64,000 nucleotides of DNA from Candidatus Poribacteria bacterium (GTDB lineage: Bacteria; Poribacteria; WGA-4E; WGA-3G). Within the stretch, counting starts at the first letter, position 1. Each line of letters starts with the position of its first letter. The notes below the pieces were generated by a model. The model was not told the origin of the DNA, searched no databases, and saw only the letters and a list, made by a program, of their open reading frames with translations. The DNA lies in NCBI GenBank assembly GCA_965214095.1, contig OZ243938.1:1-64000 (forward strand), given 5' to 3'. Positions 34,242 through 37,939 of the stretch are shown in pieces. Position numbers and translations under genes: made by a program.

Positions 34242-35531
34242 TCAAGCAACCCGTGCTATATTTGATCGTGTTCCTTGAACGTCAAAACATTCATATTGAT
34301 TTGTATACATAATCTGTGTGGCAAATGCCATCGCCTGTTTCTCGGTGAGGTATCCATCTGCGATTTCTGCTTCAAGTGCGCGTTGAATTTCATTCCGTGC
34401 TTGGATAGAATATGCATAAGCACTTGTAGGCCATCCCGTGTCCCCGCCAAAGGCAAATAACTTGTTGGAAGGTACGGCATGAATACATCTCCGCAGAAAA
34501 TCACGTGAACTATATGGATCAATACTCCATGCCCAACAGAAGTCTATCCAAATATTGCGATAGTGTTTTGCAAGGGCGACTAATTCATCATTATAAGGAT
34601 ATGCAATGTGCATCAGCACAAACTTAGCATCCAGATATCGAGAAAACAGCGCACACATATTACCCGCAGGAATACGACTGACAGGCATCCTATTATTTCC
34701 TGCATAATAACCAGTGTGGATTTTGAATGGAAGATTGTGTTCAATAGTAAGTTCTACACCACGTGCCCAACACCAATCTCCCAGACATAAACGTGTGGAT
34801 TCATCAATCTGATCGGAGGGTTTAGTCAACACAGCATTGAGTGCAACAGAGGCATCCTTATCACTACGTTCAATCCATTTAAGTGTACGATTGTAAGCGT
34901 GTTGGGATTTAACAGCAATAGCACAGGGGGCATGTTTAGCGAAAATCGCATCTATGCCTTTTTTCAAAGTTGCCAGGTCTTTCACTTCAACACCGGTTTC
35001 AGAGTGGATAGCTTCAGGATTCACCTGTCCATTACAGAAATTTGCCCAAGAAAGATCATATAAGAAAAAATCTTGTCCAGAGGTGTCTGGTGGACACGGC
35101 CAACTGAAGTCATCTGTTTGAATATGGTCAAGTTTCGCAATATCATGCAGGATATGAAGACGTTTCCCAGATTGACGAATAGTTTTTACTTTGTCTTGTG
35201 CTTTTTCAAGGGAATCACCTGTCAGTTCATCAAGTGCGTAGATATGTTTTGCAATGAGACTAACCGCTTCACCATAACCGGTGAATTGTGTGGCATGCCA
35301 AGCATCACGTATTCCCGCAAAACGTGTCCTGATATCTTTTGATGAATCCATTAAGTGTTGCATCGCCTCTGCTGAAGCACCCGCTGTATGTAGGTCAGCG
35401 GGGACATAATTACCAAATAAATCCTGGAGTATATCAGGTCCATTCTTCACCCAATCATCTTCTCGGCGCATGTGTTCATGCGTATCAACCATACGCGTTG
35501 AGTGGATATGATCTGCTAATTCTGTTGTCAT
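34242..35531 (-). CDS. Amidohydrolase-superfamily protein
   Basis: VDTHEH, KIHTG, VLMH, FGGD metal ligands; start MTTEL after GAAAGGA (the longer ORF-track start lies inside the MITE). Confidence 0.8.
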   Translation of the reverse strand: MTTELADHIHSTRMVDTHEHMRREDDWVKNGPDILQDLFGNYVPADLHTAGASAEAMQHLMDSSKDIRTRFAGIRDAWHATQFTGYGEAVSLIAKHIYALDELTGDSLEKAQDKVKTIRQSGKRLHILHDIAKLDHIQTDDFSWPCPPDTSGQDFFLYDLSWANFCNGQVNPEAIHSETGVEVKDLATLKKGIDAIFAKHAPCAIAVKSQHAYNRTLKWIERSDKDASVALNAVLTKPSDQIDESTRLCLGDWCWARGVELTIEHNLPFKIHTGYYAGNNRMPVSRIPAGNMCALFSRYLDAKFVLMHIAYPYNDELVALAKHYRNIWIDFCWAWSIDPYSSRDFLRRCIHAVPSNKLFAFGGDTGWPTSAYAYSIQARNEIQRALEAEIADGYLTEKQAMAFATQIMYTNQYECFDVQGTRSNIARVA

Positions 35532-35567
35532 GAATGTATTCCTTTCCATTATCTGGACATTTTTCTT

Positions 35568-35670
35568 TATAGTACATTTTGAAATTACTTGAACACTCTG
35601 CATCGGCGAGGTTAGGAGACCTCGCCTACCGTGGGTCGAAAGTGTCAACTTATATTTATAATTCACTATA
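35568..35670. mobile_element. 103-bp MITE-like element with a single REP (copy 2)
   Basis: Direct copy of 31285-31387 with 4 substitutions. Confidence 0.82.
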
Positions 35671-36046
35671 ATATAAATTCATACTTGACAAACACATTAT
35701 AATATGATTAACTATAATGTAACTATAATAGACACACTATTTTCATTTAGATATGTCTATTGAAAGTCATTGTGAATATGATATTGTAAAGTCTGCTGAA
35801 GATTATAGACAAATTGTTATGTTATGTCAAAAGAAACATCCAATTCGTATGCAATACTATTCTTTCTTCTAAATATATAATTGTAATCATACATTGTGGA
35901 AATTGTGAATAGGAGATTTTCTTAAAAGTAGTTTTTGTTAGTTATAAGTTTATGCATGCCTTCTGCTTTTTTATTTACGACATTCACGAAATACGTGAAT
36001 CAGTATAGAAACTTGCGTCAGCGGAAGACAATCACAGGAGCATATA

Positions 36047-36979
36047 ATGCCTACAGGACGGATAAAATATTATAATTTAGATAAAGGATTCGGTTTTATA
36101 GCACAAGATAACAGTGAAGAGGATGTTTTCTTACACAGTTCCGCTATTAAATATGCCGACTATGAGGAACTACGTGTTGGTCAGCGCGTTAAATATAATG
36201 TCGTTGAAGGAGATAAAGGATTAGTAGCGAAGAATGTGGAAGTCTTGCTAACCCCTACTGAAAGAAGATGGTTACGACAAGGCAAAACAATAATTCCAAG
36301 AGGATATTCTGGATTCCAAGCTCAGAATCAAGATCAAGCCAGTAATGCTACGCAAGCATTTTCTGACAATTCAGTGAATAAGAATGAAGATGAGCATCCA
36401 AAACATACCCCCACAGATTGGAAAAGTAGTTCTCAGAAGCAAACATCGGGATTACGTTCCAATAGAGAACATACTGAAAAAGAACAAACTTCCAGGCAGT
36501 TAAGTTTCGGAGACCTCTATATCCTCAAACAGATAAATCAGGAAACTCCGATGTATTTTGCTATGTACAATCATGTGAATTTTCCTGCCACTGTTTTAGA
36601 AATGACACTGTCAGGATTTACTCTTAATTGTAATGATAGTGAAGAAGTTGTAAAGAAGTCTGACATCAAGTATTGCTATAAGGATATTGATGCCCAAAAT
36701 GTCACTGCACTACTTGAATATAAAGATGAAGTAAAAGACAAGCAACTGCAGCCGGTTGAAACAGATGATGAGCAATATTCCATTGATACTGAGGCAGTCA
36801 ATCATGCCCGACAGGATGGAAATGCTATCCAGGTTACACTACGCGAAGGTGAGTTTTTTCAAGGGATTATTGATTGGATTAGTCCGTATGAAATAAAGTT
36901 AGTATTGAAAAATGGTGCCAAGATTGTTGTATTTCAACATGCTATCTGTGATTTGGCAGTTGTCAAAATGGAGGAATAA
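36047..36979 (+). CDS. Cold-shock domain protein fused to two Hfq/Sm-like domains
   Basis: CSD aa 1-66 (KGFGFI RNP1, VFLH RNP2); aa ~154-212 ending KKSDIKYCYK; aa ~246-305 IQVTLREGEFFQGIIDWISPYEIKL...IVVFQHAI, aligned by eye to Hfq. CSD call is firm, Hfq calls less so. Confidence 0.75.
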   Translation: MPTGRIKYYNLDKGFGFIAQDNSEEDVFLHSSAIKYADYEELRVGQRVKYNVVEGDKGLVAKNVEVLLTPTERRWLRQGKTIIPRGYSGFQAQNQDQASNATQAFSDNSVNKNEDEHPKHTPTDWKSSSQKQTSGLRSNREHTEKEQTSRQLSFGDLYILKQINQETPMYFAMYNHVNFPATVLEMTLSGFTLNCNDSEEVVKKSDIKYCYKDIDAQNVTALLEYKDEVKDKQLQPVETDDEQYSIDTEAVNHARQDGNAIQVTLREGEFFQGIIDWISPYEIKLVLKNGAKIVVFQHAICDLAVVKMEE

Positions 36980-36980
36980 A

Positions 36981-37574
36981 TTGGAAACCTTACCTGAAGA
37001 AGTCATGGCAACTTATCACGAACTTGTGGAGGAGATTTCACAAGACATAGCAAGATTACAGAAGGAACATGGACGTGGTCCTTGTCCATCAAACTGTTTC
37101 CAATGTTGTCTAAACACATCAACGATTCCCATCAGCGAAGTAGAAGCGCGTGATTTAAAAACAGGTCTTGACGCACTTCCCGAACCTATACGACAACATA
37201 TTCGTGAAAAAGCACAGAGAACAATTGAGGTGTTAGAGAAGAAAGGTTTTTCTCCAGATAAAATGGTTCAGGATGCAGGAATGAAAGCAATTGATGTTAT
37301 TAAAGGTAAATCCTATGGTGAATGTCCTATGCTCGTAGGAGGCGTTTGTACTGTTTACGAACACCGGCCAGTAATCTGCCGTGTATGGGGATATCCTATT
37401 AATAACGGAGCAGAGTTGGCTTGTTGTAAAAAAACGTTTATTGGTGTGCGTCGCAATTTCGAACCTATAGACTATGCAGACTACTGGCGGAGATGTAAAG
37501 AATTGAGTCTGACGCTTGGTGCAAAAGAAAAAACACCAAATTGCTATTTAGTACTAAAGTTGTTGGATGATTAG
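36981..37574 (+). CDS. YkgJ-family cysteine-cluster (CxxCxxCC-type) protein
   Basis: CPSNCFQCC, CPML, CTVYEHRPVICR; TTG start after GGAGGA, 1 nt after the upstream stop. Confidence 0.85.
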   Translation: METLPEEVMATYHELVEEISQDIARLQKEHGRGPCPSNCFQCCLNTSTIPISEVEARDLKTGLDALPEPIRQHIREKAQRTIEVLEKKGFSPDKMVQDAGMKAIDVIKGKSYGECPMLVGGVCTVYEHRPVICRVWGYPINNGAELACCKKTFIGVRRNFEPIDYADYWRRCKELSLTLGAKEKTPNCYLVLKLLDD

Positions 37575-37609
37575 TTGATATAATTTGATGGTCTTTATAC
37601 ACTATACTC

Positions 37610-37939
37610 CTAATCGTCCATTGAATCGATGAGTTCACGTAAGAATTTGAAAGTATAAATTCCTGTTTTATGTCCGTCACTCCACTGTAGTTGAATAGCG
37701 TACCTTCCAACAGGTTGAATCCCAACCAAATGCAGTTTTTCCCAATAATCATCAGTAGGTAACATCCGAAAAGGGTCGTCCTGCTGCTTTTCAGCATCAC
37801 ATCGTGCACATGGACATTTCTCTCTGAGTAACCTATAAGAAAGTTCACTCAGATGTCCATCTTTCCACTGTATTGACAAACTATGAGGTAGTCGTTTGAT
37901 TTCTGTCGGTTTGGATTGTCTAAGATCGTCTTTCATCAT
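37610..37939 (-). CDS. DUF971 / GBBH N-terminal-like Zn-binding protein
   Basis: WKDGH, LREKCPCARC, VGRYAIQLQWSDGHKTGIY. Confidence 0.9.
   Translation of the reverse strand: MMKDDLRQSKPTEIKRLPHSLSIQWKDGHLSELSYRLLREKCPCARCDAEKQQDDPFRMLPTDDYWEKLHLVGIQPVGRYAIQLQWSDGHKTGIYTFKFLRELIDSMDD

Follow-up and report, generated by a model that had tools for sequence, protein, structure and literature searches.

What kind of protein results when a cold-shock domain (CSD) runs on, within a single open reading frame (ORF), into two domains that both resemble Hfq? The question is posed by a gene of a Candidatus Poribacteria bacterium (NCBI GenBank assembly GCA_965214095.1; GTDB lineage Bacteria; Poribacteria; WGA-4E; WGA-3G), located in the first 64,000 nucleotides (nt) of contig OZ243938.1 (hereafter "the window," meaning this whole stretch, forward strand). 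The gene spans 36047..36979 on the + strand, stop codon included, and encodes 310 amino acids (aa), exactly where an original prediction, made by a model from the sequence alone, had placed it. Post-transcriptional control in bacteria is known to rest on four pillars, Hfq, Csp, ProQ, and CsrA. To our knowledge, many phyla have no recognized Hfq, which raises the question of how RNA–RNA pairing is handled in them. In the present case, two of the pillars are joined in one strongly conserved protein throughout a candidate phylum of sponge symbionts that have not been cultured. We slightly favor the reading that the product is a composite RNA chaperone of Candidatus Poribacteria, i.e., one that would capture and melt RNA, oligomerize, and bind U-rich RNA.

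Domain architecture and conservation

The original prediction read the protein as a CSD followed by two Sm/Hfq-like domains, and this three-module reading was borne out by profile searches, profile–profile comparison, and structure prediction. The CSD (aa 1-66; 36047..36244, +), which had been recognized from its RNP1 (KGFGFI) and RNP2 (VFLH) motifs, is matched by Pfam PF00313 over aa 3-65 (E 6.7e-20; 71.2 bits against a gathering cut-off of 27). Of the CspA/CspE-type proteins, E. coli CspA (1mjc; E 4.3e-14) aligns with these first 66 residues over their whole length. RNP1 (aa 13-18) is identical to that of CspA, whereas RNP2 (VFLHS, aa 27-31; VFVHF in CspA) ends in S rather than F. In the 120 orthologs on which all residue counts and conservation values below are based, this last aromatic is replaced by S in 113 and by N in seven, and K13, F15, F17, F28, and H30 are invariant (120/120). 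Judged by these residues, the nucleic-acid-binding surface is intact and the CSD is an ordinary family member. What is not ordinary is its context: canonical Csps are single-domain proteins of ~70 aa, whereas this CSD carries a 245-residue extension. A CSD combined with a second RNA-binding module on a flexible tether is also seen in the eukaryotic proteins Lin28, Unr, and YB-1, which are among the structural matches of the CSD. However, their second modules are zinc knuckles or further CSDs, and there is no homology outside the CSD.

The C-terminal domain (aa 246-306; 36782..36964, +) had been aligned by eye with Hfq. It has the Sm1 glycines G268 and G273, Y281, and an Sm2 motif F296-Q297-H298-A299-I300 (within VFQHAI), and G268, G273, W277, Y281, F296, and H298 are each kept in 119/120 orthologs. 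This single sequence scores under the thresholds of the curated models (19.5-22.8 bits for Hfq_1, PF21979, and 17.3-21.4 bits for Hfq, PF17209, both with a cut-off of 27; 19-20.5 bits for TIGR02383, with a cut-off of 61.7). Among solved structures, the M. jannaschii Hfq-like protein is matched to the domain at E 0.014. A profile made from 38 members of the tandem-module family matches 37 different Hfq sequences of solved structure, with E from 1.5e-7 to 4e-3 and always on the C-terminal domain, and the PF17209 cut-off (27 bits) is passed by 10 of 65 relatives scanned. In the AlphaFold2 model the domain comprises a helix (248-257) and five strands, with a predicted local distance difference test (pLDDT) score above 90. 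It superposes on Synechocystis Hfq (3hfo) with a root-mean-square deviation (rmsd) of 1.0 Å over 60 residues (Z 8.2), and it also matches E. coli Hfq (6qlb; Z 8.0). We consider the Hfq assignment secure because of the family profile, the relatives that exceed the cut-off, and the superposition on 3hfo. The cyanobacterial Hfq (PF21979, NF047718, Ssr3341, 3hfo) is the best structural match of the domain; it is a single-domain protein of ~70 aa, and by sequence 3hfo is marginal to the family profile (E 0.24).

The middle domain (aa 149-216; 36491..36694, +; helix 154-164 and five strands within 168-212) is much harder to place by sequence, as a search with aa 151-218 found 0 Pfam families at E ≤ 10. 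AlphaFold2, given the family alignment, models aa 149-310 as a helix plus five strands twice over, with a mean pLDDT of 96.2 and a predicted TM score (pTM) of 0.90, as befits a compact, rigid two-domain module. In this pLDDT-96 model the middle domain superposes on Caulobacter Hfq (6gwk; Z 7.6, rmsd 1.2 Å, 63/63 residues) and S. aureus Hfq (1kq1; Z 7.3, rmsd 1.0 Å, 60/60), and in the full-length model it does so with Z 9.4 (6gwk; rmsd 1.6 Å, 63/63) and Z 9.2 (1kq1; rmsd 1.2 Å, 60/60); Z values of 7-8 can be reached by chance folds, and the weight lies in the alignment of whole chains at 1.0-1.6 Å and in the presence of one family in the top rows. A structural search with the tandem model returned Hfq in all of the top seven rows, covering both domains. 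Foldseek, a check suggested with the original prediction, gave Hfq at a probability of 1.00 for every match among those listed.

Direct support for a common origin of the two domains comes from hhalign. With deep profiles (221 sequences for the middle domain, effective number of sequences [Neff] 7.2; 251 for the C-terminal domain) the two align over 44 columns with a probability of 95.9% and E 5.6e-9; with only 23 close orthologs (Neff 1.5) the probability was 0.2% and there was no match. Because of the former result, the two Sm/Hfq-like domains are best described as sharing an ancestor, that is, as diverged copies produced by internal duplication. The claim of a Hfq-like middle domain, originally made from its layout, has thus gained both structural (Z 7.6-9.4) and profile support. 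The connector between the two domains (aa 217-245; 36695..36781, +) is modeled at pLDDT 94-98 and includes two short helices at 213-222 and 227-230.

Compared with Hfq proper (PF17209; E. coli, 1kq1, 6gwk), the likeness consists of the helix plus five-strand Sm fold in both domains, and of the Sm1 glycines and the [YF]-[KRQ]-H-A-I motif in the C-terminal one. The differences are the presence of two Sm domains per chain (the first strongly diverged), the N-terminal CSD, the scores under the cut-offs, and a different distal face. There is a two-half Hfq model, NF010691/PRK14091 (176 positions), which we take to stand for the tandem Hfq of some alphaproteobacteria, and it weakly matches 13 of 38 family members. 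Membership was rejected, as the scores are 15-17 bits against a threshold of 270 and only the C-terminal domain aligns (model positions 18-78 of 176).

Conservation, expressed for each region as the mean majority-residue fraction, follows the domain boundaries. It is 0.91 in the CSD, 0.85 in the middle domain, 0.55 in the connector, and 0.74 in the C-terminal domain; K204, K208, Y209, Y211, and K212 of the middle domain are invariant. The original prediction described the region between the CSD and the middle domain as a polar linker of ~85 aa. This holds for aa 96-148 (36332..36490, +), a polar stretch of ~55 residues that is predicted to be disordered (pLDDT 27-30), varies in length, and has a majority fraction of 0.32. 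It does not hold for aa 67-95 (36245..36331, +; LLTPTERRWLRQGKTIIPRGYSGF...), where the fraction is 0.94, the highest of all regions. Accordingly, this segment is not linker but, as judged from the alignment, a near-invariant motif of 29 residues and the best-conserved block of the protein. A short helix is modeled at aa 70-77 (low confidence), and a TPxExxxLxQGKxxIPR-like version of the motif is shared by 8 of the 14 CSD-tandem fusions, even at identities as low as 33%. The contrast between domains (0.74-0.94) and linker (0.32), together with the fact that nearly all orthologs are stop-free, shows at the level of the alignment that the fusion protein is under strong purifying selection.

Given an unusual architecture in an uncultured organism, one should ask whether the gene could be a chance ORF, a csp-hfq chimera created by mis-assembly, or a pseudogene. 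We found nothing in favor of this and give it practically no credence. Stop-free, full-length orthologs with 43-100% identity occur in three families and in independent assemblies, including single-contig genomes, which refutes an artefact; conservation tracks the domains, and the same architecture recurs in more distant fusions. Moreover, a ribosome-binding site (AGGAG; 36036..36040, +) lies 7 nt 5' of the ATG and is invariant in 16/16 aligned upstream regions. Because the whole AGGAGCAnA that precedes the ATG shows no variation in these 16 regions, the start codon is also secure.

The tandem module within and beyond Poribacteria

The fusion protein (P0001) has a match in 170 of the 176 genomes of the phylum, and in all 133 with a completeness of at least 90% and a contamination of at most 5%. 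Full-length orthologs share 59-100% identity in the family to which the window belongs and 43-51% in two further families, and matches in most other families are partial. Named relatives stem from Candidatus Poribacteria, or else from the assembly of a sponge. They are called "cold shock domain-containing protein," "CspA family cold shock protein," or "hypothetical protein" in their sources. This bears out the forecast that annotation would report only a cold-shock protein, although PF21979 (Hfq_1) is already precomputed on many of the relatives.

In its own genome (5.25 Mb, 4 contigs, 94.5% complete), the ORF is the sole CSD match, the sole PF17209 match, and the best PF21979 match. ProQ had no match at all, CsrA and LSM had none over the cut-off, and beyond the fusion nothing of the Hfq, Csp, ProQ, and CsrA kinds was found over cut-off there. 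Since it provides the only CSD and the only Hfq-like domains found, the fusion protein may be the main RNA chaperone of this genome. In the family, all 61 genomes with a completeness of at least 90% have a CSD, and in 39 of them the fusion is the only match. The extra CSD matches in these 61 genomes lie in open frames of 184-945 aa, plus one 80-aa frame at a contig end.

PF17209 is matched over its cut-off in 53/176 genomes of the phylum, almost always in frames of ~155-330 aa or >800 aa, and the best such loci elsewhere in the phylum (6/6) are tandem-module paralogs (E 2.8e-15 to 4e-30, covering most of both domains). Based on these frame lengths and loci, Hfq-like domains in the Poribacteria lineage occur in tandem, and Csp or Hfq proteins of a single domain seem to be rare or absent, as far as incomplete genomes can tell. 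The original prediction had proposed looking for the architecture in related genomes and for a standalone hfq. The architecture was found in three families and no other Hfq in the genome itself, but short PF17209 frames of 80-104 aa do occur in four genomes (G001, G003, G099, and G101).

A separate observation concerns very long frames. PF17209 matches over the cut-off were found within frames of 758-1426 aa in several Poribacteria genomes, and CSD matches within frames of 813-945 aa (e.g., G170:C1:1359699-1363805, G164:C1:1111168-1111323, G112:C6:18581-18730, and G101:C1:4028939-4029082). This suggests that several Poribacteria genomes encode giant multi-domain RNA-binding proteins.

Two things had escaped the original prediction: the invariant motif that follows the CSD, and the standing of the tandem module as a separate, widespread family. 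When aa 151-310 were searched against 1.84 billion representatives, 146 clusters (50% identity) were matched at E ≤ 1e-3 and 43 at E ≤ 1e-10, and the matches typically span both domains. With a hidden Markov model (HMM) of the tandem module, 117 distant domain matches cover the full module. Its partners vary. Among the 65 scanned relatives, 12 have an N-terminal CSD, five an XRE-type helix-turn-helix (HTH), and one HEAT repeats; several consist of ~170 aa with nothing else, and 13 have no Pfam match at E ≤ 0.01. The XRE-HTH fusions (P0124, P0125, P0131, P0134, and P0187), some with and some without a CSD, hint at a possible use of the module as the sensor or effector domain in regulators that bind DNA. 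We also noted one metagenomic protein of 577 aa (P0264; a member of its cluster, P0320, has 1298 aa) with two modules, and hence four Hfq-like domains, plus LSM- and S1-like stretches.

A narrower alignment of members of ~184 aa was used to search for stand-alone modules. Of 83 loci confirmed, 80 were kept, most of them from Thermodesulfobacteriota, including the cultured Desulfosarcina variabilis, Desulfocicer vacuolatum, and strain NaphS2. Further carriers belong to Calditrichia, Entotheonella/Tectimicrobiota, Latescibacterota, and Myxococcota, and there is one gammaproteobacterial metagenome-assembled genome. The tandem module is a sizeable family whose first domain is missed by Pfam, and D. 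variabilis and D. vacuolatum make experiments possible. In eight stand-alone loci from other phyla there was no common neighbor and no flagellar gene. In two of these eight, a stand-alone response-regulator receiver gene lies directly 5' of the tandem gene (L057:2426-2923 and L086:2415-2912).

A literature search, for which most subscription journals were out of reach, returned no description of a CSD-Hfq fusion or of the tandem module. Some precedent for a C-terminal Hfq/Sm domain on a nucleic-acid-binding fusion is given by the zinc-finger-Hfq fusions of archaeal plasmids and by Pyrobaculum SmAP3, as presented in a review on augmented Sm proteins (PMC3710371). The zinc-finger-Hfq fusions have a C2H2 zinc finger rather than a CSD as the N-terminal partner, and a single Sm domain; the term "cold shock" is absent from the review. 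What is new here, on the sequence evidence, is a phylum-wide domain architecture built on an unrecognized tandem-Sm family, although the kinds of components are already known.

Ring, pseudo-dimer, or scaffold

If the protein is a composite RNA chaperone, as we are inclined to think, it could work as follows. The CSD would capture and melt single-stranded RNA, and the tandem Sm module would oligomerize. The simplest form would have three chains that make a six-domain ring in which middle and C-terminal domains alternate, this being the simplest route by which a protein with two Sm domains can arrive at a six-membered Sm ring. Such a ring, with three tethered CSDs that would couple RNA melting to annealing, had already been put forward in the original prediction. 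The ring would bind U-rich RNA and hold RNAs for annealing, or for handing over to the decay or translation machinery, and one protein would thus do what a separate Csp and Hfq do elsewhere. In this scheme the invariant motif after the CSD might be a docking or regulatory element that contacts the ring or a partner.

The residues that bear on RNA binding were mapped by alignment to Caulobacter Hfq (6gwk) and counted in the orthologs. The roles of the E. coli Hfq residues (proximal uridine pocket, rim, distal face) are those that we take to be established. In the C-terminal domain, Y281 is at the position of Hfq F42, F296 at that of Y55, and H298 at that of H57, each kept in 119/120. Position 297, which corresponds to K56, is occupied by R (96 orthologs), Q (20), or L (three). 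Because Y281, F296, R/Q297, and H298 match F42, Y55, K56, and H57, the alignment shows that the signature of the uridine-binding (proximal) site of Hfq is retained in this domain. The rim arginine R16 has its counterpart in R255 (116/120), and D247 is at the position of Q8.

This signature also bears on the possibility that the Sm module is mainly a protein–protein scaffold, for a ribonuclease, the ribosome, or the product of the neighboring gene, and that only the CSD acts on RNA. We regard this as improbable, as retention of the proximal site (Y281, F296, and H298 in 119/120 each, and R/Q297) would be left unexplained. A scaffold has its attractions, including the structural matches to RimP C-terminal domains, which sit on the 30S subunit (Z 5.6-6.2), and an invariant acidic loop (see below) that would be odd on an RNA-binding face. 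That Sm folds act as scaffolds in many multidomain proteins is also on record (PMC3710371). The neighbor in question encodes a CxxCxxCC-type (YkgJ-like) protein of 189 aa (37005..37574, +), which scores 22.8 bits with PF03692 against a cut-off of 23 and is separated from the fusion gene by 26 nt. It lies directly 3' on the same strand in 17 of 21 loci (11/11 of the same genus, 4/4 of other genera of the family, and 2/6 of two other families), and the two genes are probably co-transcribed, to go by their spacing and order. Even so, the pair is missing in four of the six loci of the two other families, which argues against the scaffold reading.

Several points weigh against a composite chaperone with a ring. 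This sequence's own Hfq scores are under the Pfam and NCBIfam cut-offs. The distal face differs from that of E. coli Hfq, as Y25, I30, and K31 are replaced by T264, E269, and F270, and the REGE loop, part of an L-R-E-G-E stretch that does not vary, is acidic. In the middle domain, the aromatic residue and the histidine of the Hfq pocket are missing. Only K204 is retained there, invariant at the K56 position, with T or S rather than H as the next residue (the register at the turn between strands 4 and 5 is deduced), and the pocket aromatic is replaced by S189 (S in 103/120), whereas most stand-alone relatives have Y. Each pocket of an alternating ring would therefore be half-degenerate. The genome itself is incomplete, so absences from it are not proof, and other genomes of the phylum carry extra tandem paralogs. 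Finally, the confident monomer model (pTM 0.90) could reflect two domains that are packed against each other in a closed pseudo-dimer, not side by side as in a ring.

The last point leads to the alternative that there is no ring at all. The module would then be a closed pseudo-dimer that acts either as a sequence-specific RNA-binding or translational-repressor unit (like FljA in its logic) or as a WYL-like sensor of single-stranded nucleic acids, the CSD would add general affinity, and the protein would regulate a few transcripts rather than act as a global chaperone. We think this unlikely, though it is just as concrete. A pTM of 0.90 means a fixed intramolecular arrangement, and the XRE-type HTH fusions in 5/65 relatives have the architecture of ligand-sensing regulators. 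WYL regulators (DriD, PafBC, BrxR, and CapW) are among the structural matches (Z 5.0-6.0), but their scores are well under those of Hfq and the ~72 aligned residues are spread over both domains. Likewise, FljA-family (PF03614) clusters came first in an ESM-Atlas feature search (0.93; 211/256 features), but the Atlas recognition value was 2082, i.e., <2300, and only four of the ten best hits were in one family. Three of the 38 family members have a weak PF03614 match (best E 0.017), and there are 0 matches in the genome itself (E ≤ 10) and 0 in the 176 genomes of the phylum (E ≤ 0.01), in a run in which no control genome was positive either. In addition, a protein that is universally present and very highly conserved is more readily reconciled with housekeeping than with niche regulation.

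FljA deserves a comment of its own. We take it to be the phase-1 flagellin repressor that acts on fliC mRNA. The length of its family model (PF03614, 170 positions) is near that of the tandem module, for which it is the top ESM-Atlas feature match. Membership of the fusion protein in PF03614 was rejected, given the lack of an HMM match for the protein itself or in the 176 genomes. In one PF03614 cluster of the ESM-Atlas, labels for both PF03614 and Hfq are attached to a minority of the members. As FljA-family clusters rank first and one of them has both labels, FljA may itself be a hidden tandem-Sm protein.

Returning to the composite chaperone, a stronger version can be formulated, in which separate Csp and Hfq have been replaced by the fusion in Poribacteria, three chains form a pseudo-hexameric ring with three tethered CSDs, the protein stands for a new class of chaperones that couple melting to annealing, and its core belongs to a broad, unrecognized family. 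Taken as a whole, we find this rather doubtful. If active as proposed, the protein would be a natural experiment on the coupling of RNA melting and annealing, and a pseudo-symmetric bacterial Sm ring analogous to the heteromeric Sm/LSm rings of eukaryotes. It would also open a way to study RNA regulation in organisms that resist cultivation.

Leader, promoter-like sites, and flanking genes

The region upstream of the fusion gene contains a small hairpin (TTCACG-loop-CGTGAA; 35983..35999, +) ~50 nt 5' of the ATG, in the presumed leader. RNAalifold, applied to the 16 aligned regions, gives five pairs, four of which show a change on both sides in at least one sequence, with -3.8 kcal/mol, which is weak. 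In relatives the stem is formed by CGCG/CGCG or TGCA/TGCA instead of TTCACG/CGTGAA. An Rfam scan of 35500-37700 at E ≤ 1 yielded 0 matches, so there is no known cspA-type leader in this interval, and a terminator scan found 0 sites. A search for sequencing runs that contain the locus found no RNA data; it turned up the stretch in four contig sets of one study, and one unrelated run.

The sole promoter-like site on the + strand upstream of the fusion gene matches the consensus at 9/12 positions. A conserved block, at 35677-35720 (+; CATACTTGACAAA...TATGAT.A.CTATA), is found in 9/12 same-genus loci, ~330-370 nt 5' of the CSD gene, and was not called by the consensus scan. From its sequence it is a possible promoter, and would give a long, cspA-like leader. 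On the - strand, there is a perfect sigma-70 consensus (TTGACA, 17 nt, TATAAT; 12/12) at 35802-35830, which faces a divergent amidohydrolase-like gene (34242..35666, -); the TGTCAAAAGAAAC block and the preceding ATTATAGA are invariant or nearly so in 12 same-genus upstream regions. On the other side of the fusion gene, past the CxxCxxCC-type gene, a GBBH-like_N (DUF971) gene at 37610-37939 (-) is syntenic in most of the 21 loci examined.

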